Shown here in pieces: positions 157 through 54,144 of a stretch of 64,000 nucleotides of DNA (its first letter is position 1; the number at the start of each line of letters is the position of its first letter). The position numbers were made by a program, and so were the translations under genes. Location of the stretch: contig CAZZCX010000001.1 in NCBI GenBank assembly GCA_964653195.1, positions 35,290 through 99,289 on the forward strand. The letters run 5' to 3'. The notes beneath the pieces were generated by a model, which was not told the DNA's origin, did no database searches, and saw only the letters and a program-made list of their open reading frames with translations. Origin of the DNA: an uncultured Gammaproteobacteria bacterium. Lineage in GTDB: Bacteria > Patescibacteriota > Microgenomatia > Levybacterales > UBA12049.

Positions 157-714
157 ATGTTTTTCATCATTTTTCAAATAGGAATATTTTTGATAATCAT
201 ACTTTTAATTTATTTTTTAACCTGGTTTCTTCCAACTGACAGTCCCTGGTCTCCTTGGTGGGCAACTTCTAAAGAAATTGCTCGAAAAGCATGTAAAATC
301 GCAAAAGTAGAAAGAAAAGATATATTTTATGAACTTGGTTCAGGCACAGGAACGACGGTAGTGATTGCAGCAAAAGAGTTTGGAGCGAAAGCTATAGGAA
401 TTGAGTCGGATTGGAGTAGAGTCACTTGGTCACGCTGGAAAGCAGATAAATCTGGAGTTGGAAAGAAAGTAAAATTTATTAGAAATAACTTTTTTGATGT
501 TAGCCTTAAGGATGCAACAGTAATTTATTTATATTTAGTACCTAGAGTTATAAAAAAACTGAGGACTAAACTATTGAGAGAGTTAAAGCCTGGGACGCGT
601 GTTATAAGCTATACTTATTTTATTGATTATTTACCCCAAGTTGCTATCGATGAAGAATCTCAAATTTTTGTTTATAAAATAGAAGAAAAAGTAAAAAGTT
701 CCCCTAGCGTTTGA
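157..714 (+). CDS. class I SAM-dependent methyltransferase with an N-terminal transmembrane helix
   Basis: Hydrophobic N-terminus, then a motif I ELGSGTGTTVV Rossmann signature. Confidence 0.5.
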   Translation: MFFIIFQIGIFLIIILLIYFLTWFLPTDSPWSPWWATSKEIARKACKIAKVERKDIFYELGSGTGTTVVIAAKEFGAKAIGIESDWSRVTWSRWKADKSGVGKKVKFIRNNFFDVSLKDATVIYLYLVPRVIKKLRTKLLRELKPGTRVISYTYFIDYLPQVAIDEESQIFVYKIEEKVKSSPSV

Positions 715-1798
715 TTTTTAGATAAAAACTTCGAAGTATGTCAGCAATTTTATAAATTTCATAGAAGAAAGGCTTGATGACAAGATCTAAACTACCTACA
801 TATTCTATGTGTTCTGGATTAAACCGTTTTTTGAATAAATGAAATCCGTACCATGGATTATTGGGGTCAGGATTTGATGAAAGTGAGCCCCACATATCAA
901 ACTTTTTAAGTCCGAGTTTTTTTCCCCATTTTATAGCTTCCCACATCGTAAGGGTTGAATGCATGACGTTTCTATTTTCATTGCTTGATGCACCGTACGG
1001 GTAATAGAGCGTGTCATGAAAAACAAAAAAAAGCATCGTTGTCAAAACTTTATTTTGATAGGTCGCTGTAAATAAGTGAGAAGTTAGCTGATCTGGGTTT
1101 ATAGTTTGAGAAGTATGAGAAATTCTTGTTTTACTTGAAGAATAAACGTGATTTAGCGTTTCCCATTGGGACTTGTGGTAATGTTTAGTATGGGCATAAA
1201 ATCGTTGTCTTTTAGTGGTTTCCTGTGTTAGCGCCCAGTACTTTTCAAATGCAGCATCGGAATTATCAACAGATACTAAAACTCCGTGCCTTTCAGCGAC
1301 TTTTATATTGTATCTTGTTTTTGGATGTAGATTTTTTAAGAGTTCTTCTTCAGTCTTTGTTAGGTCAAGTTGAAAAGTATATTTGGTAAATAGAGGATGC
1401 GCTGACTGCTTGAGAGAGTACTGAGAACTGTTAAGTAGTTTATCTATTTGCCGATTCTCGCCTGTCGGCGAGGCAGAGTCACTTACCATTTGCTCATTGG
1501 GTTCAAGTTGTATAAATATACAATTTTCTTTTTTACCGATATTTGCCAATTCTTCTAAGATTTCCTTAGTTGGGAATACGCTCTTAGGTAAGTAACCGAT
1601 TTTTAATGAAGTATTAGGAATAGAATGTATGCTTAGTTGAAAAGCAGATACTAGTTCTCCCCCATCATAAATGCCACGTCGAATTATTTTGATGCCTGTT
1701 TTTTTTCTAAATTCCCCCCATTCATAGCTCTGAAGCGGATGCATCACTACTTTATTGAAGTCTTTTCTCATTTCTTCGCTTATTTGTAATATTCTCAT
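704..1798 (-). CDS. FemAB-family peptidoglycan cross-bridge peptidyltransferase-like protein
   Basis: N-terminal HPLQSYEWGEF... pattern and a length of about 360 aa fit FemAB/MurM. This is a weak, composition-level match. Confidence 0.45.
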   Translation of the reverse strand: MRILQISEEMRKDFNKVVMHPLQSYEWGEFRKKTGIKIIRRGIYDGGELVSAFQLSIHSIPNTSLKIGYLPKSVFPTKEILEELANIGKKENCIFIQLEPNEQMVSDSASPTGENRQIDKLLNSSQYSLKQSAHPLFTKYTFQLDLTKTEEELLKNLHPKTRYNIKVAERHGVLVSVDNSDAAFEKYWALTQETTKRQRFYAHTKHYHKSQWETLNHVYSSSKTRISHTSQTINPDQLTSHLFTATYQNKVLTTMLFFVFHDTLYYPYGASSNENRNVMHSTLTMWEAIKWGKKLGLKKFDMWGSLSSNPDPNNPWYGFHLFKKRFNPEHIEYVGSLDLVIKPFFYEIYKIADILRSFYLKIKR

Positions 1799-4430: not shown

Positions 4431-4516
4431 AGGCATTTTATTTGCAAAAATGCGAATATAACTATCCATATTAGGTGTATATTCGCATTATTCATGTTAA
4501 ATCTAAAACTAATCAT

Positions 4517-5659
4517 ATGCCAAAACGGAAAAAGAAACTTTCACAGAAAAAAACTATAGTATTAATTTCGTTGGTATTTGCGTTAATAGGATTTTTGATT
4601 ATTTCAAAATTTTCTGCATACATAAAACCCTTATACGAACTAGCTTTTGAAAAAAAGATAGAACTAAAAAAAACTAACGAAGAAAAGATAAATATACTTT
4701 TATTAGGAATAGGAGGTGGTTCACATGACGGGCCTTTGCTTACGGATACTATTATGTTTGCCAGTATAGACCCCTTGAAACTATCTGTAAACTTAATATC
4801 GATTCCAAGAGATTTATGGATTGATGAAGTTAAAGATAAAGTTAATAAAGTTTATGTTTATAGCGAGGTTAAGAAAAAAAGTTCCGGATTACTTGAAACA
4901 AAAAGAGTAGTAAGTAAAGTAGTTGGTCAAAGAATTGATTATGGTTTTCTAATTGATTTCACCGGTTTTATAAAGGCAGTTGATATTATAGGAGGAATTA
5001 ATGTAAAAGTAGAAAGATCATTTGATGATTATGCCTATCCAGTTGCTGGCAAAGAAAATGATCTTTGCGGTTTTGAAGAAGAGTCAATAGCAAGCTTTTC
5101 TGCTCAAATCGCAACCGGGAGCGCTACCGATTTTGATATATTTCCTTGCCGCTTTGAGCATTTAAAATTTGAGAAAGGGGAACAGCATATGGATGGCATA
5201 ACAGCATTAAAATTTGTGAGATCACGGCATGCGCTCGGTCCTGAAGGTACAGACTTTGCTAGGAGTATGCGTCAGGAAAAAGTGATAAAAGCAGTAAAAG
5301 AGAAAGTATTTTCAGCGGGAATACTCCTAAATCCCGTGAGAATATTTAGTCTATATGATGTAATCAAAGATAGTATAGATACAGATATAAAAGAGGAAGA
5401 AATTGATGATTTCATAAAGCTTGCACAAAAAATGAAGAATTCAGAAATTCACAGTACAGTATTAGATGTGAGTGAAGATGACCGCGAAATACCAGCATTG
5501 CTGTGGAATCCACCTATTTCAGATGAGTATAATTATCAATGGGTTATAATTCCTAAAAAAGGAAAAAGTGATTACTCAGAAGTCCATACATACATAATGT
5601 GTATTATAAAATATAATGGCTGCTCAGCTACTCCCACCTATTCCACATCGATTAACTGA
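4517..5659 (+). CDS. LytR-CpsA-Psr (LCP) family cell-wall polymer transferase
   Basis: N-terminal TM; LLLGIGGGSHDGPLLTDTIMFASID...SIPRDLWI matches the LCP core. The start is moved to the internal ATG at 4517 (MPKRKKK). Confidence 0.7.
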   Translation: MPKRKKKLSQKKTIVLISLVFALIGFLIISKFSAYIKPLYELAFEKKIELKKTNEEKINILLLGIGGGSHDGPLLTDTIMFASIDPLKLSVNLISIPRDLWIDEVKDKVNKVYVYSEVKKKSSGLLETKRVVSKVVGQRIDYGFLIDFTGFIKAVDIIGGINVKVERSFDDYAYPVAGKENDLCGFEEESIASFSAQIATGSATDFDIFPCRFEHLKFEKGEQHMDGITALKFVRSRHALGPEGTDFARSMRQEKVIKAVKEKVFSAGILLNPVRIFSLYDVIKDSIDTDIKEEEIDDFIKLAQKMKNSEIHSTVLDVSEDDREIPALLWNPPISDEYNYQWVIIPKKGKSDYSEVHTYIMCIIKYNGCSATPTYSTSIN

Positions 5660-6249: not shown

Positions 6250-8727
6250 TCACTTATGGATTTTTAAGATAAATGTATCTTCAGACTTGAAAACTGTCTT
6301 TCCAATGCTTTGAAGCTTCGATTCTTTTAGTAATGGATATTTCTCTCGCTCTAACCTTCCAATTATTACATAAGAGATATTGTATTTTTGTAATAATTCT
6401 TTAGTAATTAGTAAATCTTCAGATTCGTATATTTGCCTTATGTCATCAGTTCTTGAGTTTGGGGCATCTTGTCCTCTCCACAACCATTGGTGGACATACC
6501 ATCCAAGTACAGTTGGTAAGCCTGTATTTGCAGAAAATCTTTCGTAATCTGTATAAGAATCACCTTGCGCTTCAAGAATTACTGGCTGGTTTTTGAGATT
6601 ATTCAACCATAGATATGCTTCATAATCCCCGCTGGAACGGTTCTTTAAATATTTTACTCCATCTAATCCGACATACGTTTTAAGTCCATTGTAATAAGAA
6701 ATTACGGCAAAGTAAGGGTATACCAGTACAAGAGAAATAAGTGTAGCCGAAAGAAATACATAAGCCAAGTAAAGAGGTTTTATGGGTATTGGAAGTAATC
6801 TCAAATTATACTTTGAAGAAGTCCGTGTGATAACATATCCACTTACTATAGACAACATAATAAATGCCTGAAAAACTAATTTAAACATAGTATTTGCTCT
6901 GTAATGATCAGGATATATATCTTTCATATATATAAATTCAGGAATAATTATTAAAAATGTCGAGATAATTATCAGTAAAAGGATGAATTTATCAGTCTTT
7001 TTTAAAGGTTTATTTTTTAAGAAAAAGACTAGAAAAGTAAAAATAAAAAAATAAAAGAAACCATATAAAGTCAAAAGTTGCCATAGAGGTGATCTTAGGC
7101 AATGATCTGGTTCAAATAGTAAAGGTCCGATCTTTCTGCTTGTATACTTTGTGGTAACTTTTTGTGAATCTTTTGTATTCATCAGAGATAAGCAGTGATC
7201 CGGAACAAAAATCTTTTTTATAAGATTTCTATTATCTATGCCATATGTTTTTCCGGACATATCAACAGTTTCTTGAGTTAGAAATATTGAAGGAGCGCCT
7301 ACTACACCTATTCCGCCTACAAGTTTTGATGCATCAAAATTAAAAGAAAATGGGCGAGAAAAAAGGAAAAAAGTAAATAGAAGAATTGATAATTGGACTA
7401 GTAAGCCTATACCAAAATTTACAATCGGTTTCTTTAACTGAGATGATAGTCCATTGCCCCAATTTATTTTTAATGATAATTCATCTTTTGTTTGTTTTGT
7501 GACGTATTCTTCACTTGTCTTTCTAAAGACTCGATTATAGTGATAATAAAATAATACTAATGCAGTAAGTAGTAAATAAGTTAAGCCGTCCCATGCGTTT
7601 GTCATATACATGCTGGAGAGAAGAAAACTTATAAACACTAAACCGCTTACTATTGGTTTCATTCTACTTTTTGGGTCAGTAAAAAATATTACAAAGATTG
7701 TCGATATGGTGAGCAGTACTATCGGTATATCAGCAACATGCCCATGAAGATCAGCTACTACCCAGGAGTATATAGGAAATTCATGTATAGTATTGTGAAT
7801 AAATCTGGTTGCATTGGGATACCAGTAGTTATTTGGGACTGCCGTCAACTTTTTCTTATCAACTTCATTGCAATAAACTATTTCCTTGCTACCACTTGTG
7901 CTAATTTTTTCATACGAATCCTTACCGTAGCAAGGATTAACAAGAGACAATTCTAAATTCCAAATAGGCATTGGTTTCTCTACGTCATATGGCTTGAAGA
8001 ATATATATAAAATATGTAGATTACCAGATAGGCTAACCAAGCTGGCTGTTATAAGACCACCAACTATAATTCTAAAGATTTGCTTCTCAATTTTATTAAA
8101 AGATCGGGCTATGAGTGTTATTCCTAAAGAAAAAGACTCTAAAAAACATAATGCGAACAGTGTTGCGATCATTAAGTTGTAGGTAATAAAAGATGGTATT
8201 CCTGATGCCTTTGTGAGGACAGCAGTTATGAAATGACCGAAATAGTAATAATTTATAGGTAGTCCGGAATACCACATATCAACTGGAGGGAAATAAGTTG
8301 AGCGGAGTATAGAGTTTACAAAACCAAAATCCATATATTTCTCCAGGCCATAAATTTCAGGATTGAATGCGCGAACATAAGACCATGAGAGAAGACAAAG
8401 AAAGAAAATACATTCTTCGAATATAAAAAGAAAAATTCTTTTATGATTCAATAATGATTTATAACTTTTGCCTTTCCAAACGAGAATTGGAATTATTGTA
8501 AAAGTAAATATCAAATAAATCGAATAATTTGTAAACGGGGTTATTTTAAATATACCTAAGACAAAAACCAAATAGCTTATTATTAGTATTCCAAGAATCT
8601 TTGAGAACCCATAGCCCTTATCTAAAAATGAAGAAAAAATTATACCTGCTAAGGGCAAGAATACAATTCCTGATATAAAAAAAATAATCCACCAGCGAAA
8701 AACATACATGAGATCGTGTATTGGCAT
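6250..8727 (-). CDS. large polytopic membrane protein, possible GT-C-like glycosyltransferase (DUF2298-like)
   Basis: 825 aa, many predicted TM helices at both ends with a central soluble region. Sits in the glycosylation cluster. Confidence 0.35.
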   Translation of the reverse strand: MPIHDLMYVFRWWIIFFISGIVFLPLAGIIFSSFLDKGYGFSKILGILIISYLVFVLGIFKITPFTNYSIYLIFTFTIIPILVWKGKSYKSLLNHKRIFLFIFEECIFFLCLLSWSYVRAFNPEIYGLEKYMDFGFVNSILRSTYFPPVDMWYSGLPINYYYFGHFITAVLTKASGIPSFITYNLMIATLFALCFLESFSLGITLIARSFNKIEKQIFRIIVGGLITASLVSLSGNLHILYIFFKPYDVEKPMPIWNLELSLVNPCYGKDSYEKISTSGSKEIVYCNEVDKKKLTAVPNNYWYPNATRFIHNTIHEFPIYSWVVADLHGHVADIPIVLLTISTIFVIFFTDPKSRMKPIVSGLVFISFLLSSMYMTNAWDGLTYLLLTALVLFYYHYNRVFRKTSEEYVTKQTKDELSLKINWGNGLSSQLKKPIVNFGIGLLVQLSILLFTFFLFSRPFSFNFDASKLVGGIGVVGAPSIFLTQETVDMSGKTYGIDNRNLIKKIFVPDHCLSLMNTKDSQKVTTKYTSRKIGPLLFEPDHCLRSPLWQLLTLYGFFYFFIFTFLVFFLKNKPLKKTDKFILLLIIISTFLIIIPEFIYMKDIYPDHYRANTMFKLVFQAFIMLSIVSGYVITRTSSKYNLRLLPIPIKPLYLAYVFLSATLISLVLVYPYFAVISYYNGLKTYVGLDGVKYLKNRSSGDYEAYLWLNNLKNQPVILEAQGDSYTDYERFSANTGLPTVLGWYVHQWLWRGQDAPNSRTDDIRQIYESEDLLITKELLQKYNISYVIIGRLEREKYPLLKESKLQSIGKTVFKSEDTFILKIHK

Positions 8728-10443: not shown

Positions 10444-11176
10444 GGAAAAGCCATTTTTTTTTGCAGTTGTGCGTCCAAAAGAAGCAAGTCTTTATCAGCC
10501 CTTTAAGCCATTTATAGGACCAATATTAGATCTTGGTTGTGGAGATGGTTTTTTTGCATCTGTTGCCTTTGGTAGATTAGATGCAGGAGTCGATCCAGAT
10601 AATAATGCAGTTAAAGAAGCAAAAGCTCGTCGTATATATAAAGAAATAAGATACTATGATGGAAATAAAATCCCTTATGAAAATAAATACTTTTCTACTG
10701 TTGTTAGTAATTCAACCCTGGAACATATTTCTAACTTAGACGATGTACTCAAGGAAACTTCACGAGTCTTGAAAAAAAACGGAAAGTTTTATTTTACAAC
10801 TGTTACAGATTCTTGGCCAGAATATTTATTTGGAAATCTGTTTCTAGGTGACTTATACAAGAAATATTTTGTAGATAAATCTAAACATTATAATATGTAC
10901 TCTATAAGTAAATGGAAAAAGTTATTAAAGGTTCATGGTTTTAGTGTTATATCATATCAACATTACCTAGATAATAAAAAAATTTTGTGGCTATTTGATA
11001 TTTCTCATTATTTTAGTTTTCCATCTTTAATTACGAAAAAGATTTTAGGTAAGTGGGTACTATTCCCCAACAAGGAGAAGGCAGCAGGAAAGCTCAAAGA
11101 TTTTTTAATTAAACAGACTAAGAATGATAACAGAAAAGGACCTTATCTATTTATTTCTGCAATAAAAATAAATTAA
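10394..11176 (+). CDS. class I SAM-dependent methyltransferase (Methyltransf_11-like)
   Basis: ILDLGCGDGFFA motif I. Overlaps the 3' end of the GT4 gene, so the true start may be slightly downstream. Confidence 0.6.
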   Translation: MKKLSNNMKKYLTAFLREKPFFFAVVRPKEASLYQPFKPFIGPILDLGCGDGFFASVAFGRLDAGVDPDNNAVKEAKARRIYKEIRYYDGNKIPYENKYFSTVVSNSTLEHISNLDDVLKETSRVLKKNGKFYFTTVTDSWPEYLFGNLFLGDLYKKYFVDKSKHYNMYSISKWKKLLKVHGFSVISYQHYLDNKKILWLFDISHYFSFPSLITKKILGKWVLFPNKEKAAGKLKDFLIKQTKNDNRKGPYLFISAIKIN

Positions 11177-12906
11177 TTACCTCTGACTTTTTTATAAATA
11201 AGTACTTGTGGATGGTCATAAACAGTGAAAGATTCTTCTGATAAATCATCAGGTATAGTAAGTGGTATACCTAGATACTCTAATGAAGGATAAGAGTTAA
11301 ATTCTGCAATTTTTATAAAACCGCGTTTTCCGGCAAACAAATCATCATAGAATTTGCTGGTGATAGGATACCTCTCAGGGACTCGAGAAATACTTGCCCA
11401 AGCTCTATTTGAAGATAGGATATAATAGTCGGATTGAGATAAAACCTCATTTAATTTTTCCCATTTTTCACTAGAGTCAGGATTGAATATATGAAGTTCA
11501 AGATGGTTGAAATATTTTTGTTGACCAGCAAACCGAAGAGGTAATGGATCATCCCATACTTCCCAAGCTATTACACTTCCTTCCGGAATATTATCATAAA
11601 TCCAATCTGATGCTTCAATTCTTGAATGAGGTGTTTTATAAATTGACAAAAAAGATAAAGGCCAGATAACGACAATTATTAAGCAAATAAATTTAAAAAT
11701 TACATGCTTATTTGTTAGCAAGCTATCCCACCCTAATGCAGCAAAAATTGCCAGAAAAGGATAAATAAAAATAAAATATCTAATAGCTTTGACTATTTGC
11801 GTAGATTGAAATAAGAAAAATGCCATGACCCAAAGAAGTATGGTTATAAAAATAATATTTCTTTTTCTTGCTAATATGATGACAATGCCTAATATCGCAA
11901 AAAAGAAATAAGGTATACCTACACCGAATAGTATTAAATTAAAAAGACTAAATAATACTGGTGTTCTGTTAAGCCACTGGACTCCGGGCGGAAACCAGGC
12001 ATCTTCGCTCTCCCAAGACTTAAGTGTTTGCCAATTTTGGATTAGGAGTGTACTAATTTTCGGATTTAAAAAAGATGCATTTTCAAACATATAGGGATTA
12101 GAAATACGAATTGAAAAATACGTAAAAAACAGAAAGATCATAAATGACATTATTAAAGTTAAAAGTGTTTTTTTATTTTCTTTAAAAATTGCTACAAATG
12201 ATCTGGAAAATTTGATACGCTGCACATAATAGATTCCAATAATCGATAGTAATAGAGGAAGAAAGAATATAGCAGTAATTTTTGATCCGAATGCGAATCC
12301 AAGGAAAATTCCGCTAAATATTAACGGTTGGTATTCGTTTTTAATATAAAATCTAATACAAAAATAAAAAGAAGCAAATAGAAAGGTGTTAAGAAATAGA
12401 TCTACAGCAAAAAAATGAGAAAGTTGTATAGGTAATACGCTTATAGCATAGAAGAATGAAGCCAAATATTTAATGGAGCTATTAAGCTTTAACTTTTCTT
12501 CAATTAGCTTAATAGTTTTATAAATTAGTATGACGGTAAGTATATCCAAAAACGCAGAGAATAATCGTCCGGTAATAGTAAAGCCATTATAATTATCATT
12601 AGCACTGAAAATTGATGCAAGTTTATTAAGAGTTATAGGTAGCGCGCCATAAACGTAAAAAGGATATTTTCTGTTACCTTCATTGTCATATAAATTAACA
12701 GGATTTAGGCTTGATGTTTTGGGATTTAGATAATTTTTCAAACTATTTGGTATCTTTGTATCTATACCAACCATTGTGAGAAATCTTTCATCAGGGTGAA
12801 GATGTGTGTTATTATCCCAATTTATACCGGTAAATCGAAGAATAATTGCTAGAATGATAATTCCTATTATTAATAATTTAGTCGCAATTTGGTTAAATGA
12901 AGACAT
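11173..12906 (-). CDS. GT-C fold membrane glycosyltransferase (ArnT/PMT, family 39/83-like)
   Basis: Polytopic, with an HPDERFL motif in the first extracytoplasmic loop and a C-terminal soluble domain. Confidence 0.55.
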   Translation of the reverse strand: MSSFNQIATKLLIIGIIILAIILRFTGINWDNNTHLHPDERFLTMVGIDTKIPNSLKNYLNPKTSSLNPVNLYDNEGNRKYPFYVYGALPITLNKLASIFSANDNYNGFTITGRLFSAFLDILTVILIYKTIKLIEEKLKLNSSIKYLASFFYAISVLPIQLSHFFAVDLFLNTFLFASFYFCIRFYIKNEYQPLIFSGIFLGFAFGSKITAIFFLPLLLSIIGIYYVQRIKFSRSFVAIFKENKKTLLTLIMSFMIFLFFTYFSIRISNPYMFENASFLNPKISTLLIQNWQTLKSWESEDAWFPPGVQWLNRTPVLFSLFNLILFGVGIPYFFFAILGIVIILARKRNIIFITILLWVMAFFLFQSTQIVKAIRYFIFIYPFLAIFAALGWDSLLTNKHVIFKFICLIIVVIWPLSFLSIYKTPHSRIEASDWIYDNIPEGSVIAWEVWDDPLPLRFAGQQKYFNHLELHIFNPDSSEKWEKLNEVLSQSDYYILSSNRAWASISRVPERYPITSKFYDDLFAGKRGFIKIAEFNSYPSLEYLGIPLTIPDDLSEESFTVYDHPQVLIYKKVRGN

Positions 12907-12911
12907 ATAAC

Positions 12912-14591
12912 TTATTTAATCTTTTTGAAAATATAGACTGTCGGATTGTCAAATACATTTACTGTCTGTTCGAAAGATAACATTGGGTTATTTATATAAA
13001 TTATTTTACAATAAAAATCACATGGCGATTTAAAAATTAGTTTATATTTAGTGATGTCAAAGAAAGATGTATAAATCAAATATCGCTTTGGAAAACGCGT
13101 TTTTTTAAGTTGTGCCATTTTTAAAAGTCGTTCGCTGGGAAGTATGATATATTCTGTATTAGAAAGCGTTTGCGATAGCGGAGTGTTATTGCATAAATCA
13201 TCGCTTTTTTCTGAATTATAAAAATCACAAAGGACGATATTGTGCAGATTGGGATTAAAAGCAATTATACCTAGGTCATATGTTTCACTAATTATTTTAC
13301 TATTTGAAGGTATATTTTGCTTCGCCCATTCTGCTGCTGCTACTCTATTGTCGGGTTTAGCAAGCACGGTTACAAAATAAGAAAAGGTAAAAATTAAACT
13401 GATTATTGAGACTATACTTAATACTTGATATTTAATGCTTGATAACTTTGGATTATTTAGAAATAAATCTGTAATCAGTATTGAGACAATCAAATAAATA
13501 AATGGCAATGTCGGCACCATATAACGTGTCCACTTAACAAATAAAAATGCTTGGGAAAGGAAAAGTAGTAAGTAGCAAGAAATAAGTAGCAAATAATTCT
13601 TGTTTTTTGATTTAACAGATATCCAAAAGATATAAAAAAAAGAAGGAATAAATAGAACAGTAATAAGAGGATTAAGTAGGAAAGGATATATATATTTAAA
13701 ATGATACAAAACTGGAATTGTATCGAAAAACTCATGAGTATAGAAGACATCAATCGCTCCTGTTGCAACTTTTGATTCGTAATTTATACTGTTTTCGAAA
13801 GAAGGAAAATCTAAAAATGTAAATGGATTACTAATTAAATATATTAACGATGCCGAGCCTAATATTAAAAAGGAGGAAAGGAATTTAAAAGATATTTTTT
13901 TAAATAAAACAAATCTATATCTCTCTTCAGGTATTTTATTAAATGCTGATATTAATATACTAAATAAAGGTAGGATGACAAATAAAATATTCGATATTTT
14001 TGTAGATATTAAAATTCCTAGAATTAATCCGGTAAGTATTAATGCTTTAATACTAATCTGATGACTCAACTTTATGGCAGTCCAAATTAGGAGCAGGCAA
14101 AAAAAAGTAATCCATATTTCAAAAGTTCCAAAGTGAGAAAATTGAATAAATCCCACACTTGAAGAAGCAAGAAAGGCTGCTAGTAAGCCTACTTTTTCTG
14201 AGTGTATTTTTTTACCGATTTTATATATCAAAGCGATAATCAAAATAGAGAAAAAAGCAGAAAAAAATCTTCCAATAAAAATAGCTTGATCAAAAGGAAT
14301 TTGAAAATTATCATTCGGTTGGTTGAATGTAAGTTGAAAATATCTAACTAAGTTCAGCAATACTCCTGTGAAGTAGACTGTGTATATTGGTAATGATCCA
14401 TATGCAAAAAAATTAGGATTCATTTGCCCAGGAAATTTTAACTGAGAAATAGAAGAAGCTATATTTCTTTCATCTGGATGGAAATAGTAAGGTGCGCCCC
14501 AGTTCAAATTGTAATATCTCAGAAAAGCTCCAAGAACCATTAAGCATATTAAGGTAAGTACTGTTTTATTTTTTACTAGATATTTTTTCAT
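12912..14591 (-). CDS. GT-C fold membrane glycosyltransferase (ArnT/PMT-like), tandem paralog
   Basis: FHPDERNIA loop motif and the same architecture as its neighbour. Confidence 0.55.
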   Translation of the reverse strand: MKKYLVKNKTVLTLICLMVLGAFLRYYNLNWGAPYYFHPDERNIASSISQLKFPGQMNPNFFAYGSLPIYTVYFTGVLLNLVRYFQLTFNQPNDNFQIPFDQAIFIGRFFSAFFSILIIALIYKIGKKIHSEKVGLLAAFLASSSVGFIQFSHFGTFEIWITFFCLLLIWTAIKLSHQISIKALILTGLILGILISTKISNILFVILPLFSILISAFNKIPEERYRFVLFKKISFKFLSSFLILGSASLIYLISNPFTFLDFPSFENSINYESKVATGAIDVFYTHEFFDTIPVLYHFKYIYPFLLNPLITVLFIPSFFYIFWISVKSKNKNYLLLISCYLLLFLSQAFLFVKWTRYMVPTLPFIYLIVSILITDLFLNNPKLSSIKYQVLSIVSIISLIFTFSYFVTVLAKPDNRVAAAEWAKQNIPSNSKIISETYDLGIIAFNPNLHNIVLCDFYNSEKSDDLCNNTPLSQTLSNTEYIILPSERLLKMAQLKKTRFPKRYLIYTSFFDITKYKLIFKSPCDFYCKIIYINNPMLSFEQTVNVFDNPTVYIFKKIK

Positions 14592-51194: not shown

Positions 51195-52085
51195 CTATCG
51201 TGGTTGAAAATGTCTTAGCGCATGACCTGCGTCGCCCACTACATATGGGTCAGTTAAGTAATAACTTTCACTCATTGTATCTGAAGCGCCTAAAGCATAA
51301 AAAATTGAATCTATTCCCATTTCTTCAAGGGCTTTTCTCATATTAGGTATTCCTTGTCTTGTGGCAATAATTGATCGATGAATCAATCTTGCGGGAGTGA
51401 TTCCTTGAAAATGAGCTGCGACAGCAACCGCAGCTGTTGATGCGCCTGATGCAGGGTTCACAAAGTCCGCCACTTCTATAGTCTTCCCTTTGAGTTCGGG
51501 GACTTGCTGTGGGTTTTTCCATTCTACAGTTACCATAAGATCTGTATTCTGCCCCACTTTAGGATGCTGTCTTTTGGTAACCACTTTTATTTCATCAGAT
51601 ATTTCTGCGTCGGGTTCCACCCCATGCGCTAAGCGTGTAGTAACTAGACCAGCTCTTACTAAAGATAACGGTCTACCTCGTCTAGCGTTAGGTAAAAGCG
51701 TATCAATTAATTCATAACCCACTTTTGCCAATTCATAATATTCTCTACAAAATCCTTTATCATCGTAGAGACGAGGATCTGCTACGAGTCTTCTGGCATG
51801 TGAATCAATTCTTCCGACCAAAAGCGCAGCGTCTTTATAGTGATCTGCGAGAACCACCACTCCCCTTTCGGGAAGTCGATCGCGATCATCCCAAAAATCT
51901 CCTTCGTATCTGCCAATAAGGGGAACGAATGCCTGGCCGAAATTAACCAGGGCATGTACATCTGGATTATCACCAGCTTCTAAAAAGTCTTGTGGGTTTC
52001 TTAATTCACCGAGAATATTGATTCTTTCCCCATGGTGAGCAGAAGTAACTCTAATCTCTGAACCACCAAAAATGTAAGCTTGCAT
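51195..52085 (-). CDS. uracil-phosphoribosyltransferase-family PRTase with an approximately 110-aa N-terminal extension
   Basis: SLVRAGL (UPRT LRAGLGM), KTIEVADFVNPASGAST (PRPP loop, compare DPMLATGGS), C-terminal YVVGDAGHALRHF (compare IIPGLGDAGDKIFG). Confidence 0.55.
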   Translation of the reverse strand: MQAYIFGGSEIRVTSAHHGERINILGELRNPQDFLEAGDNPDVHALVNFGQAFVPLIGRYEGDFWDDRDRLPERGVVVLADHYKDAALLVGRIDSHARRLVADPRLYDDKGFCREYYELAKVGYELIDTLLPNARRGRPLSLVRAGLVTTRLAHGVEPDAEISDEIKVVTKRQHPKVGQNTDLMVTVEWKNPQQVPELKGKTIEVADFVNPASGASTAAVAVAAHFQGITPARLIHRSIIATRQGIPNMRKALEEMGIDSIFYALGASDTMSESYYLTDPYVVGDAGHALRHFQPR

Positions 52086-52505: not shown

Positions 52506-54029
52506 TTAAATGCCGTTTCCGAGGTTATTTAAAACTATTGAGGCAACCTCAGAATCTGTTATGAGATTGATTCCGTATTTAACTGCAGCTTTTCGTATTA
52601 ACTTGCCGTCAGTAAATTCTTTACTCACCTTAACTGTTTCACGTGTTGGGATATTAATTATCAAATCAAATATTTGCCTTGTAACTAAATCTAAAATATT
52701 GGGCGATTCTCCGATTTGGGATACTTTATATACTAGAGAAGAATTGAGATTATTTTGCATTAAAAATTTATTTGTATTTTCAGTAGTGTAGAGAATCACA
52801 TCTTTATTTCTTACAGCATTTTTGATATATGGCAATAAATATTTTTTATTTTCACTTTTGCCGATACTTAATAGAACATGTTTCTTTTTGCCGGATATCA
52901 ATGCTTGTTTTCCGTATCTATTAGAGTCCCAGTCATGAGTTTGTAAGTTTAAAAGCGAAAATACTGACACATTTCTGATGTTTGATTCAGCAAAAACATA
53001 CTGCAAAACCCTTTCATTGCCTATGCCGTAACCTGCATGAGGATTAGTCAGTTTATTCTTCATAATATTCAAATACCATGCGAAATCTTCATAGCTTCCG
53101 CCTCTTTGCTGATGGAGTTTAAACATAGTTGATGAAAGAAGTCTCTCATTGAGCTTTTCGAAATCATGTTCGCGTACCGCTGATCCTGCACCTTCACCTG
53201 CATATGGAAAAATTAAATCGGCAGATAACGCCAGTCGATCATCTTTCGTCCATACTTTCATGTTGAAGAATTTTATTTCTTTAGGGTATTTCATAATAAA
53301 TACCGGCAGTTCCTGCTTGGGTCCGTTAAGCAAAGATACTACTTTGGCTTCATGCTCTGCTTTTAAATCGTCACCGAATTTCACTTGCGGAAATCCGTGT
53401 TTATTTAAGAGTTTCACCGCGTCTTCATAAGTAATACGAAGAAAATCTTTTCTTAAAACCTCTTTTAATCTCTCTGTATTTCTATTGTAGGTTTTCTTTA
53501 ATATTTCATGGTTGTCTTTTATTATTTGCGCAATCATTGACCGAACAGTTTCTTGAATACTTTCAAGAAGAGCTTCATACATTTGGTTTTCATCGTAATT
53601 TTCGCGAGTCATTGAAAGAAGAGTACTGTCAAACTCTTCTTCAGTTAGACGAAACTGTCTAAGATGCCTGTCATCTTCCTCTTCTTCGTCGCGGCCTGAA
53701 TGAATTACCGTATGTACAGCATGAAAGGACTGAAGGGCTTGTTCAAGCGAAAGCTGCCCGGTTTGAGTAAGAAAAAGAGGAAGATCTAGTCGGTTGCCTA
53801 TTTTAAAAAGCGTATCTACATTTTCACATGCACCTGTTATGCCCACAACTTCAGGAACATCTACATATACTCTTTCTCTTTTTTGATAACTTTCGCGTGC
53901 TCCGTTGTTTAAGCTTTGGTTAACGGAAACTAAATTAGAAAAGTGCTCTGAATAAGGTAAAGTTATTTTATTTTCTGATATTGTAAGTTTTACTGGTTTC
54001 ATATTTTTTTGCCAAAAAAAAAGAGCCAT
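52506..54029 (-). CDS. AsnRS-type class-II aaRS catalytic core (AsnA / AS-AR-like, no anticodon-binding domain) fused to a C-terminal MGS-like domain
   Basis: Blocks aligning to the AsnS catalytic domain: ITYEDAVKLL, FGDDLKAEHE, PVFIMKYPKEIKFFNMK, DLIFPYAGEGAGSAVREHDFEKLNERL, NPHAGYGIGNERVLQYVF (motif 3). The C-terminal approximately 130 aa resembles the CarB/PurH MGS-like fold (HVLLSIGKSENKKYLLPYIKNAVRNKDVILYTTENTNKFL...). Translation may begin at the second ATG (54002). Confidence 0.6.
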   Translation of the reverse strand: MALFFWQKNMKPVKLTISENKITLPYSEHFSNLVSVNQSLNNGARESYQKRERVYVDVPEVVGITGACENVDTLFKIGNRLDLPLFLTQTGQLSLEQALQSFHAVHTVIHSGRDEEEEDDRHLRQFRLTEEEFDSTLLSMTRENYDENQMYEALLESIQETVRSMIAQIIKDNHEILKKTYNRNTERLKEVLRKDFLRITYEDAVKLLNKHGFPQVKFGDDLKAEHEAKVVSLLNGPKQELPVFIMKYPKEIKFFNMKVWTKDDRLALSADLIFPYAGEGAGSAVREHDFEKLNERLLSSTMFKLHQQRGGSYEDFAWYLNIMKNKLTNPHAGYGIGNERVLQYVFAESNIRNVSVFSLLNLQTHDWDSNRYGKQALISGKKKHVLLSIGKSENKKYLLPYIKNAVRNKDVILYTTENTNKFLMQNNLNSSLVYKVSQIGESPNILDLVTRQIFDLIINIPTRETVKVSKEFTDGKLIRKAAVKYGINLITDSEVASIVLNNLGNGI

Positions 54030-54037
54030 CCGGCTCT
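54011..54037 (-). terminator. GC-rich hairpin (AGAGCC-GGAU-GGCUCU) followed by U9, on the minus strand, overlapping the annotated start codon of the AsnRS-like gene
   Basis: Read on the minus strand: agagccggatggctct + ttttttttt. The 54029 ATG sits in the loop or stem. Confidence 0.4.
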
Positions 54038-54114
54038 TTGTTAAAGACTATAACAGTTGAGTATTATCTTAATATTTCTAATCATTCAAAAAATAATAAA
54101 ACAATTTTTAATAC

Positions 54115-54144
54115 TTGTCAACTAGCAAATGTTTGGAGTATAAT
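54115..54144 (+). promoter_or_regulatory. sigma70-type promoter for rny (TTGTCA-18-TATAAT), overlapping a minus-strand TTGACA-17-TATTAT element
   Basis: ttgtca at 54115-54120 and tataat at 54139-54144. The reverse complement of the same region carries TTGACA...TATTAT pointing at the AsnRS-like gene. Confidence 0.35.

Follow-up and report, generated by a model that had tools for sequence, protein, structure and literature searches.

Catalytic cores of class II aminoacyl-tRNA synthetases (aaRS) have been recruited to non-translational chemistry in EpmA/PoxA, HisZ and the amino acid:carrier-protein ligases, and the loss of tRNA-binding domains is a theme common to these proteins and to the family described here. 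HisZ is an aaRS paralogue without a tRNA-binding domain that can act as a regulator. The archaeal asparagine synthetase A (AS-AR), whose core derives from asparaginyl-tRNA synthetase (AsnRS) and is likewise devoid of the tRNA-binding domain, sets the precedent here: it adenylates the β-carboxyl group of aspartate independently of tRNA. The gene studied here, located in a 64-kb window (the whole stretch of DNA that was analysed), codes for a protein whose core also derives from AsnRS and has no tRNA-binding domain; it differs from EpmA/PoxA, HisZ and the carrier-protein ligases in its parent synthetase and its partners, and its family occurs without an EF-P or HisG context. Our leading reading, to which we grant somewhat less than an even chance, is that it specifies a tRNA-independent, adenylate-forming ligase, derived from an AsnRS core, of a non-canonical pyrimidine pathway in Patescibacteria, with closure of the dihydroorotate ring as its likely task.

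The core of the protein is best matched, both in sequence and in structure, by the class IIb enzyme AsnRS, with which it shares the catalytic fold, motifs 1 to 3 and the adenylate-forming residues. Residues 22 to 358 of the ORF product match Pfam tRNA-synt_2 (E = 7.9e-30), and the best solved relative is the P. horikoshii AsnRS (PDB 1x54; E = 2.7e-25 by sequence, 2.1e-36 by profile, 2.6e-21 by Foldseek), of which only chain residues 133 to 425 are covered; an AlphaFold model (pLDDT 85) superposes onto AsnRS structures over about 335 columns in Foldseek. The NCBIfam asnS model TIGR00457 is matched at profile positions 129 to 447 alone, which represent the catalytic core, with 171.7 bits, the cutoff being 342.6, and the second asnS model, NF003037, yields 166.2 bits and stays below its equivalog cutoff of 414. 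Because the asnS and 1x54 matches span only these segments, the N-terminal OB-fold is absent, and Pfam detected no tRNA_anti-codon match in the ORF product. The sequence-only reading had proposed exactly such a core without the anticodon-binding domain, had assigned it the architecture of AS-AR, and had seen in the C-terminus a methylglyoxal-synthase-like (MGS) domain of the CarB kind. Core and C-terminal domain are borne out, and the AS-AR comparison holds for the missing anticodon domain, but not for membership in that family: the archaeal AS-AR models (PRK06462) reach at best 69.2 bits where 368 are required, the protein falls below every AS-AR cutoff, and the archaeal AS-AR structures in the PDB (3p8t/1nnh) are matched with an E-value of 4.5e-4 over the last approximately 120 residues. 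The family is thus closer to AsnRS than to AS-AR, from which it also differs by its MGS fusion and pyrimidine-operon context. Matches to tRNA-synt_2 and MGS were obtained as expected, whereas the Pfam model of the E. coli-type AsnA gave none at E ≤ 1; an Amidohydro domain was not detected in the ORF product by Pfam.

The C-terminal domain scores well above the gathering threshold of the Pfam MGS family (PF02142; residues 406 to 491, E = 1.1e-11, 45.2 bits versus 24.1), is covered by the NCBIfam CarB models over residues 380 to 501, and finds its PDB match in the MGS domain of human CPS1 (2yvq). Over 120 patescibacterial protein clusters contain the fusion (62–79% identity), and the same continuous architecture throughout rules out that the C-terminal domain is a separate, frameshifted gene. 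In the databases, the members of the family are named only "asparaginyl-tRNA synthetase" (the designation used by JGI) or "amino acid--tRNA ligase-related protein", and not as ordinary AsnA. A literature search retrieved no paper on an MGS domain joined to an aaRS-like protein, in keeping with the earlier remark that no such ligase had been described, nor one on a pyrimidine pathway of the type considered here. As to the start of the gene, homologues begin at the second methionine and the first ATG lies within a leader hairpin; the true coding sequence therefore probably extends from 52506 to 54002, with the ATG at 54002 and 498 codons for amino acids.

Table 1. Features of the AsnRS-like gene and its surroundings in the window
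Feature	Position	Strand	Basis or remark
Divergent UPRTase-like phosphoribosyltransferase-family gene	51195..52085	(-)	downstream, same strand; family of 76 clusters
ORF with AsnRS core and MGS domain	52506..54029	(-)	507 aa as listed; confirmed present
C-terminal MGS-like domain, CarB allosteric-domain type	52527..52892	(-)	Pfam, CarB models, 2yvq, CarB alignment
Class II AsnRS-type catalytic core	52956..53966	(-)	aa 22-358; Pfam, asnS profile, 1x54 alignment, Foldseek
Motif 3, PHAGYGIGNER, with ATP-binding Arg	53010..53042	(-)	alignment to AsnRS
Motif 2 with acidic loop, SGRDEEEEDDRHLRQFRLTE	53640..53699	(-)	ungapped 1x54 alignment; near-invariant in homologues
Terminator-like hairpin AAAGAGCCGGATGGCTCTTT, then T9	54020..54039	(-)	17 nt before probable start codon
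Promoter-like site TTGACA-17-TATTAT	54093..54121	(-)	11/12 matches, upstream of leader; consensus match only

When the core is viewed against AsnRS, the residues needed for adenylate formation prove to be invariant across the family: the Arg, Glu, His and Phe of motif 2, the Mg/ATP-binding Glu, and the Arg of motif 3. The equivalences proposed earlier for motif 3 and for the GEGAGSAVRE segment are both recovered in the alignment, the invariant columns of motif 3 being P321, H322, G324, Y325, G326, G328, N329 and R331 (M10 numbering). In motif 2, an acidic insertion replacing the FRAE region had been suspected. The acidic stretch is real, but it is not inserted: SGRDEEEEDDRHLRQF aligns with SFRAEKSRTRRHLTEF of 1x54 without a gap, FRAE keeps its R and E, and the loop constitutes a charge-reversing substitution in which the basic KSRTR of AsnRS gives way to DEEEEDD, with about six acidic residues. 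This acidic loop is almost invariant (59 to 120 homologues), also in relatives that consist of the core only; these core-only proteins possess all conserved residues of the core+MGS proteins. Conserved as well are the residues aligned to Glu228 and Arg368 of AsnRS, which we take to recognize the asparagine side chain, and the residues that bind the α-amino group in AsnRS. The invariant catalytic residues point to an active enzyme, and the acidic loop, the missing anticodon domain and the sub-cutoff asnS scores to one that is probably not an AsnRS.

A genuine AsnRS in which the MGS domain serves as a new tRNA-binding module would agree with the best database match, with the JGI designation, and with the fact that no aaRS was found among the 12 larger ORFs of the window scanned by Pfam, which contained neither GatCAB nor pyr genes either. 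We give this interpretation hardly any credence. The acidic motif-2 loop, located where AsnRS faces the acceptor stem, and the missing anticodon-binding domain argue against charging of tRNA-Asn; the score attains half of the curated cutoff; and the pyrimidine-operon setting with its DHODH fusion (see below) also speaks against such a role. Together with the sub-cutoff scores and the acidic loop, the core-only relatives, which share the conserved residues and carry no additional domain at all, make an ordinary AsnRS very unlikely.

The MGS domain belongs to the same Pfam family as the allosteric domain of CarB/CPS1, and in both cases there is a tie to pyrimidine synthesis. Six residues of E. 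coli CarB, the reference used here (K954, T974, T977, K993, N1015, D1025), are conserved in nine out of nine aligned CPR MGS domains, and they are conserved alike in the MGS domains attached to the AsnRS core, to an argininosuccinate synthase (ASS) and to a dihydroorotase (DHOase)-like protein; T1016 and T1017 of CarB are not conserved in these nine domains. The six residues presumably correspond to the contacts with the phosphate and ribose of IMP/UMP seen in E. coli CPS-IMP structures. Their retention in a CarB-type MGS domain makes a phosphorylated or nucleotide ligand plausible, as the sequence-only reading had proposed. In contrast to CarB/CPS1, the domain occurs here without the CPS synthetase domain and is linked instead to the three enzymes just named. 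It can be viewed as a CarB-type module, predicted to bind phosphate or nucleotides and common to successive enzymes of one pathway, that probably serves pyrimidine-nucleotide feedback, enzyme assembly, or both.

The genomic context of the family, with its pyrimidine-operon linkage and its fusions, is a new finding. We surveyed 80 species-level loci (including 38 core+MGS and 31 core-only loci) with flanks of up to 10 kb. In 22 of the 38 core+MGS loci the next gene on the same strand encodes dihydroorotate dehydrogenase (DHODH; DHO_dh), with pyrE and pyrF behind it, and 21 of these 22 contain pyrF; many operons place only the core gene before pyrD. The linkage extends to fusion proteins: P0123 combines the core, the MGS domain and DHO_dh, while P0122, found in three assemblies, additionally carries a PRTase-CE end and is followed by pyrE and pyrF. 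The family gene often comes after genes for ASS+MGS and an amidohydrolase. Five loci (L014, L017, L033, L043, L052) exhibit this longer arrangement ASS+MGS, amidohydrolase, core, DHODH, with pyrE/pyrF beyond where the locus extends, and ASS+MGS genes apparently share contigs with the family gene, as judged from indirect record matching. The ASS encoded in these operons exceeds the argG equivalog cutoffs (518 vs 334), and the amidohydrolase is of the PRK06886 type with matches to cytosine-deaminase subfamilies; L043 also holds a DDAH/ADI-like citrulline-forming enzyme and an aspartase/fumarase-type lyase. E. coli CarA, CarB and PyrB, used as tblastn queries against all family loci (1.39 Mb), returned only weak matches to amidotransferase domains and matches to MGS domains, and none to the synthetase part of CarB or to PyrB. 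Membership of the family in a de novo pyrimidine pathway is well supported by these data. Operon linkage and the DHODH/PRTase fusions point to synthesis of the pyrimidine ring, and not to asparagine synthesis or to the aminoacylation of a nucleotide ligand that had also been considered; the family enzyme probably replaces absent early pyrimidine steps rather than charging tRNA. AsnRS is set apart from it by this operon context, as it is by its N-terminal OB-fold, its basic motif-2 loop and the lack of an MGS extension.

The place of the gene directly before pyrD suggests the dihydroorotase PyrC as its putative analogue, in function only. L010 has the order CBS-[DHOase-like+MGS]-PyrD, and L047 and L048 have CBS-[AsnRS core+MGS]-PyrD; the two proteins are thus positional equivalents. 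Their folds are unrelated, and PyrC carries out a reversible, metal-dependent cyclisation, whereas an ATP-dependent route via an acyl-adenylate is proposed here. In the envisioned pathway, which would proceed without CarAB, PyrB and usually PyrC, the MGS-bearing ASS would couple citrulline and aspartate, and the cytosine-deaminase-like amidohydrolase would release ornithine by hydrolysis. The AsnRS-like enzyme would then use ATP to adenylate the β-carboxyl group of the aspartate moiety by AsnA-type chemistry, whereupon the ureido or guanidino nitrogen would attack intramolecularly to form the N3–C4 amide bond of dihydroorotate; the hydrolytic step and ring closure may occur in either order. 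In effect, the enzyme would be an ATP-driven replacement of dihydroorotase, and its product would pass to DHODH, either the fused one or that of the gene immediately downstream. We infer substrate, reaction, order of steps and regulator from chemistry and genomic context. The proposal in its widest form envisages a carbamoyl-phosphate-free pyrimidine ring in Patescibacteria, especially Microgenomatia: the carbamoyl group of citrulline would reach aspartate via argininosuccinate (ASS+MGS), the AsnRS-derived cyclo-ligase would close the ring, the amidohydrolase would free ornithine, and the resulting dihydroorotate would feed pyrD/E/F, with the CarB-derived MGS domain as a shared regulatory or assembly module. 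We regard it as conceivable, yet rather doubtful in this entirety.

Several observations weaken the ring-closure reading. In 16 of the 38 core+MGS loci no DHODH follows directly (13 have none anywhere in the locus), and the same is true for 30 of the 31 core-only loci (29 with none in the locus). A DHOase-like gene adjoins the core+MGS gene in L011, which fits poorly with a simple replacement of dihydroorotase. Furthermore, the α-amino-binding residues kept in the family would not obviously be required for an N-substituted aspartate. Since no conserved residue is missing from the core-only proteins, a more general function is possible, for instance asparagine synthesis. The family could accordingly represent an ammonia-dependent asparagine synthetase of the AsnA/AS-AR kind (Asp + NH3 + ATP → Asn) with a nucleotide-sensing MGS domain, and its position in pyr operons would then reflect a shared aspartate supply or shared regulation rather than ring synthesis. 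The closest characterized relatives, AsnRS and more weakly AS-AR, speak for this idea, as do the conserved counterparts of Glu228 and Arg368 and the core-only relatives, which mostly stand alone in housekeeping-type contexts, one of them near an ammonium transporter. We nevertheless judge it unlikely, if worthy of serious attention: the fusion to DHODH and a PRTase and the place directly upstream of pyrD in 22 of 38 loci are hard to explain in this way, the ASS/amidohydrolase/pyrD-F operons would be left without a ring-closing enzyme, and the scores are far under all AS-AR cutoffs. The wider family is heterogeneous. No neighbour is conserved beyond four of the 31 core-only loci when their flanking genes are clustered; the distant core-only relative P0136 is part of a cluster of ATP-grasp and amidohydrolase genes, and P0140 stands alone beside TrmB- and Nre-domain genes. 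Core-only proteins fall below the AS-AR model cutoff as well, and some match EpmA weakly.

Absence of carB and pyrB from all family loci would also suit an enzyme that makes N-carbamoyl-aspartate directly, in place of CarAB and PyrB, by adenylating N-carboxy-aspartate for attack by ammonia, with the amidohydrolase acting as dihydroorotase. An MGS domain from the CarB allosteric domain, which in canonical pathways marks the initial, regulated step, would be at home in such an enzyme, and an amidohydrolase or DHOase-like gene adjoins the core in L011, L014, L017 and L070. To our knowledge, however, class II synthetase cores adenylate only C-carboxylates of bound amino acids, and we are not aware of any enzyme with this fold that adenylates a carbamate. 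The bona fide ASS of the operon would be left without a role, the PRK06886 amidohydrolase resembles cytosine deaminases and not DHOases, and many operons have the core as the only gene ahead of pyrD. This route is in our view quite improbable. There is an even slimmer chance that the protein is a non-catalytic subunit which, in the manner of HisZ and HisG, senses Asp/Asn and a nucleotide and thereby controls DHODH or a PRTase. Its fusion to, or adjacency with, DHODH and PRTases, its allosteric-type MGS domain and the HisZ precedent itself would be compatible with such a function; a degenerate sensor, however, would not be expected to keep all ATP-binding and adenylate-forming residues invariant at 62–79% overall identity, and degenerate catalytic motifs were not found.

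At the locus from which this study started, the only sign of a pyrimidine operon is the neighbouring UPRTase-like gene. Its product has no Pfam match of its own, but one of the 76 clusters of its family bears the UPRTase domain PF14681. Homologues follow pyrF directly in L026, L029 and L034, where they are the last gene of family-pyrD-pyrE-pyrF operons, and another adjoins thyA, DHFR and dcd in a Roizmanbacteria contig. A relationship of this neighbour to PRTase-CE was considered and rejected: BLASTP against the PRTase-CE end of P0122 revealed no similarity, and the protein belongs to the UPRTase-like family. Genes for pyrD, pyrE and pyrF (tblastn with pyr seeds), ASS and the amidohydrolase were not found elsewhere in the 64-kb window, which weakens the ring-closure reading further. 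The terminator-like leader hairpin with its U-run is a candidate attenuator and, like the UPRTase-like neighbour, counts in favour of the pyrimidine reading; similarly placed hairpins precede 11 of 31 family genes whose upstream neighbour is divergent, compared with 2 of 185 other genes. An Rfam search of the locus produced no meaningful match, and the leader therefore does not correspond to any known PyrR site or riboswitch.

If the proposed reaction is true, it would add new chemistry to the repertoire of the tRNA-synthetase core and establish a new de novo pyrimidine pathway, in which arginine or citrulline would be the source of the carbamoyl group. Pyrimidine synthesis is generally considered to open with the same three steps in all organisms, those of CPSase, ATCase and DHOase. 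According to bioRxiv 10.64898/2026.09.16.751625, large parts of the pyrimidine pathway are missing from most Patescibacteria. Should the enzymes described here replace those steps, part of this supposed auxotrophy would be an annotation artefact. Counting the family among the asparaginyl-tRNA synthetases, as some pipelines do, can mask both the absence of AsnRS and the presence of pyrimidine synthesis in these organisms.

The window protein joins an AsnRS-type class II catalytic domain (the core) to a C-terminal MGS-like domain, an architecture referred to here as core+MGS; relatives without the second domain are termed core-only. Both domains expected by the sequence-only reading were matched by Pfam, tRNA-synt_2 at aa 22-358 (E 7.9e-30) and MGS at aa 406-491 (E 1.1e-11; 45.2 bits, gathering score 24.1), and NCBIfam CarB models matched aa 380-501; the MGS domain is a PF02142 member of the CarB type. 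The top NCBIfam match, asnS (TIGR00457), scores 171.7 bits (cutoff 342.6) and is confined to profile positions 129-447, and the alignment with the nearest solved structure, the Pyrococcus horikoshii AsnRS (1x54), starts at chain residue 133, past the anticodon-binding domain; the predicted absence of this domain is thus borne out. An AlphaFold2 model (59 homologues as input; pLDDT 85.1) superposes on AsnRS structures over ~335 columns, and motif 3 and the equivalent of GEIIGGSQRE align as first described. An acidic insertion had been proposed in motif 2; instead, the alignment of SGRDEEEEDDRHLRQF with SFRAEKSRTRRHLTEF of 1x54 is gap-free, the catalytic R, E, H and F being retained and the basic loop KSRTR exchanged for acidic residues. 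The class II active site is intact for adenylate formation, in a protein with no tRNA anticodon domain and a charge-reversed motif-2 loop. We consider it extremely improbable that the family represents a true AsnRS, from which the core+MGS protein differs by the missing anticodon domain and its sub-cutoff score; a HisZ-like regulator, a second reading of such a core, is also very improbable. The suggested resemblance to archaeal asparagine synthetase A (AS-AR) holds for the core without an anticodon domain but not for the profiles, since no AS-AR model gives more than 69 bits (cutoff 368).

Features of the window and of family loci (L-numbers, species-level loci of the family; P-numbers, protein clusters or representatives)
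Feature	Position	Strand	Remarks
FemAB-family gene	window 704-1798	minus	would encode an aminoacyl-tRNA-dependent peptidoglycan peptidyltransferase
LytR_cpsA_psr gene	window 4475-5659		near FemAB-family gene
Large DUF2298 membrane protein	window 6250-8727		near FemAB-family gene
Two PMT_2 glycosyltransferases	window 11173-14591		near FemAB-family gene
Divergent UPRTase-like family gene	window 51195..52085	minus	~300 aa; same strand as core+MGS gene, downstream of it
Core+MGS ORF	window 52506..54029	minus	507 aa; presence confirmed
Conserved leader element (promoter-like site, short leader ORF, hairpin)	window 54002-54121	minus	also upstream of family gene in L001, L002, L007, L012, L013, L015, L016, L018, L031, L036-L038, L051, L058, L059, L067, L068, L076
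Terminator-like hairpin	window 54039..54020	minus	downstream of strong promoter-like site
ASS+MGS gene	L017 7326-9014; L033 7489-9102		beside pyr genes; >120 clusters (P0347-P0466)
PRK06886 amidohydrolase gene	L017 9004-9999; also L014, L020, L025, L028, L033, L043, L052, L065, L070		recurs beside AsnRS-like gene
P0122, core + MGS + DHO_dh + PRTase-CE			1134 aa; composite protein from representative search
P0123, core + MGS + DHO_dh			807 aa; composite protein from representative search
P0270, MGS + DHO_dh			composite protein from representative search
P0260, Amidohydro_1 + MGS			DHOase-like, 241-250 bits to dihydroorotase models; composite protein from representative search
Divergent DHO_dh-like + PRTase-CE fusion	L007 3334-5145; L017 11472-13391; also L018, L035
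SLOG cluster-4 (LOG-like) protein	L033 12690-13304; L017 14518-15141; also L025, L030, L032		recurrent within pyr operons
Cluster with distant core-only protein P0136	L091 5237-10542

In homologues the protein starts at the second Met, and in the window the first ATG falls within a leader hairpin's loop, so that the true start is probably 54002. The leader ORF has 14 codons (MIRNIKIILNCYSL*) and ends at the hairpin foot. Terminator-like hairpins with a U-run (7-9 U) precede many genes of the family, core-only members included, and end 10-40 nt ahead of the start codon. Where the upstream neighbour is divergent, the hairpin was present at 11 of 31 family genes versus 2 of 185 other genes (~30-fold enrichment); for co-directional neighbours the figures are 12/34 and 11/248. 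It is absent from the operon-internal copies checked, in which the core gene comes after the amidohydrolase gene, and Rfam gave no match for the leader element. In E. coli, leaders with a U-run are characteristic of UTP-sensitive pyr regulation. The hairpin looks like an attenuator, and the element may be of the UTP-sensitive or the translation-coupled type.

The fusion recurs in related genomes: the PF00152+PF02142 architecture is common to more than 120 clusters at the 90% identity level, with 62-79% identity to the window protein and lengths of ~495-500 aa, and those with a named source organism are from Patescibacteria or Levyibacteriota. Their sole names are "asparaginyl-tRNA synthetase" (JGI) and "amino acid--tRNA ligase-related protein" (NCBI). 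When 1.84 billion representatives were searched exhaustively, the next relatives proved to be many stand-alone core-only proteins of 320-390 aa, likewise under the asnS and AS-AR cutoffs, and canonical AsnRS emerged only at ~116 bits. The catalytic motifs, the acidic loop (SGRDEE.ED.RHLRQFRLTEEEF) and the GITGACENVDTLF segment, disordered in the AlphaFold2 model, are very highly conserved. Among the best 80 of 195 relatives found in GTDB species genomes, all Patescibacteria wherever the record name is informative, 44 loci encode core+MGS proteins (mostly Levyi-, Roizman-, Gottesman-, Beckwith-, Woese- and Amesbacteria) and 36 core-only proteins (Saccharimonadales, Nomura-, Uhr- and Woesebacteria, Paceibacterota by record name). 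The two forms have every conserved residue in common, with zero differentially conserved positions.

The first three genomic contexts inspected were apparently unrelated to each other. Three of the composite proteins, P0122, P0123 and P0270, join core+MGS or an MGS domain to dihydroorotate dehydrogenase (DHODH, DHO_dh, pyrD); the gene for P0122, found in three assemblies, precedes a Pribosyltran gene and OMP decarboxylase, and that for P0260 is flanked by a CBS protein and canonical pyrD. Seeds from these operons were used in tblastn searches of the 80 species-level loci. Immediately downstream of the core gene, and on its strand, a DHO_dh gene is encoded in 22 of the 38 core+MGS loci with enough flank (pyrF in 21 of them, pyrE-type PRTases in many) and in 1/31 core-only loci. 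The order ASS+MGS (ASS, argininosuccinate synthase), amidohydrolase, core(+MGS), DHODH is found in L014, L017, L033, L043 and L052 and partly in L025 and L028, followed by pyrE, a SLOG-4 protein and pyrF in those loci of this type that reach far enough. The core gene is genomically coupled to DHODH, OPRT (pyrE) and ODC (pyrF). In an Uhrbacteria locus (L089), a core-only gene stands beside OMP decarboxylase, a weak PyrE-type PRTase match, IMPDH and an ammonium transporter.

The divergent DHO_dh-like part of the PRTase-CE fusions (~360 aa, with an N-terminal extension) lies under pyrD cutoffs; other operons carry the canonical 303-aa PyrD. A CBS-pair protein is frequently encoded first (L010, L033, L047, L048). 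In L091, P0136 (47% identical) is encoded with an ATP-grasp enzyme on one side and an Amidohydro_1/DHOase-like protein on the other, in a cluster also holding an aminotransferase and a NUDIX gene, which may represent a different small-molecule pathway with the same ligase type.

The operon ASS scores far over the argG equivalog cutoffs (518 vs 334; 469 vs 268) and ends in a CarB-type MGS domain. ASS+MGS proteins form a large, extremely conserved patescibacterial family (77-93% identity), located on the same contigs as core+MGS, as judged by identical longest-contig sizes (25929, 49517, 49502, 11136, 13601, 9044, 5952). Of the operon genes scanned, none was recognised as an argininosuccinate lyase. 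The amidohydrolase belongs to NCBIfam PRK06886 ("hypothetical protein"); at subfamily level it resembles cytosine deaminases rather than DHOases, and in L033 its gene is apparently split or frameshifted (a 266-aa ORF plus a remnant). L043 additionally encodes a citrulline-forming enzyme of the DDAH/arginine-deiminase type and a Lyase_1+FumaraseC_C protein with a fumarase/aspartase-type C-terminus.

The canonical pyrD, pyrE and pyrF of the operons point to dihydroorotate as a pathway intermediate, for whose formation ASS, the cytosine-deaminase-like amidohydrolase and the AsnRS-like ligase would be the only candidates in family operons. Each could do its usual chemistry: ASS would join the citrulline ureido carbon to the aspartate amine (N1-C2 bond); the ligase would adenylate the beta-carboxyl, which a ureido or guanidino nitrogen would attack, forming the N3-C4 bond and closing the ring; and the amidohydrolase would exchange the nitrogen that carries the ornithine at C2 for oxygen, acting either ahead of ring closure, with carbamoyl-aspartate as its product, or once the ring is closed. 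AsnA and AS-AR adenylate the beta-carboxyl, and in its proposed chemistry, an aaRS core acting as a tRNA-independent ligase, the core+MGS protein resembles them; ureido binding could plausibly have arisen from an AsnRS pocket, given its recognition of a carboxamide beside the site of adenylation. The ligase as the source of the DHODH substrate fits the fusions of core to DHODH, the position of the core gene directly upstream of pyrD, and the positional equivalence of CBS-[DHOase-like+MGS]-pyrD (L010) and CBS-[core+MGS]-pyrD (L047, L048). Counting against ring closure, a DHOase-like gene adjoins the core+MGS gene in L011. No matches to E. coli CarB (synthetase part) or PyrB were found in 1.39 Mb of family loci plus the window. 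Nearly all core-only forms and many other members, including the window copy, are not beside pyr genes, yet share all conserved residues, so that a general role such as asparagine synthesis is possible; an AsnA-like asparagine synthetase, which this distribution favours, is nevertheless unlikely, though the least so of the alternatives; that the family is itself a direct carbamoyl-aspartate synthetase seems more improbable to us.

An alignment to residues 931-1073 of E. coli CarB shows K954, T974, T977, K993, N1015 and D1025 to be retained in all the MGS domains compared, from core, ASS and DHOase-like proteins alike; among these six are residues that hold the IMP/UMP phosphate and ribose in the CPS-IMP structures. 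Within an operon, the MGS domains of core and ASS are 40-45% identical. A phosphate or nucleotide ligand, as originally suggested, is therefore likely from the retained residues, but the domain could equally be an assembly device, since successive enzymes carry the same module.

By tblastn, the 64 kb window holds no pyrD, pyrE, pyrF, ASS or PRK06886 gene, and Pfam scans of 12 larger window ORFs revealed no aaRS or amidotransferase. The gene downstream of the core+MGS gene (local GC 0.41, above the window average) has no Pfam match; its family comprises 76 clusters, from candidate-phyla bacteria wherever the source names an organism, with a PRTase-like motif (VADFVNPASGAST) and a UPRTase profile on one cluster. 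In L026, L029 and L034, homologues of this gene close the core+MGS, pyrD, pyrE, pyrF operons, and another homologue adjoins thyA, DHFR and dCTP deaminase (dcd) on a Roizmanbacteria contig. The window thus keeps a pyrimidine-related neighbour, the rest of the operon being elsewhere or absent.

In agreement with the initial claim of novelty, no description of an aaRS-core+MGS fusion or of such a pyrimidine pathway was found in the literature searched. We class the core+MGS protein as an aaRS-derived ligase, and the probability that it signals a new pyrimidine pathway is, in our view, substantial.
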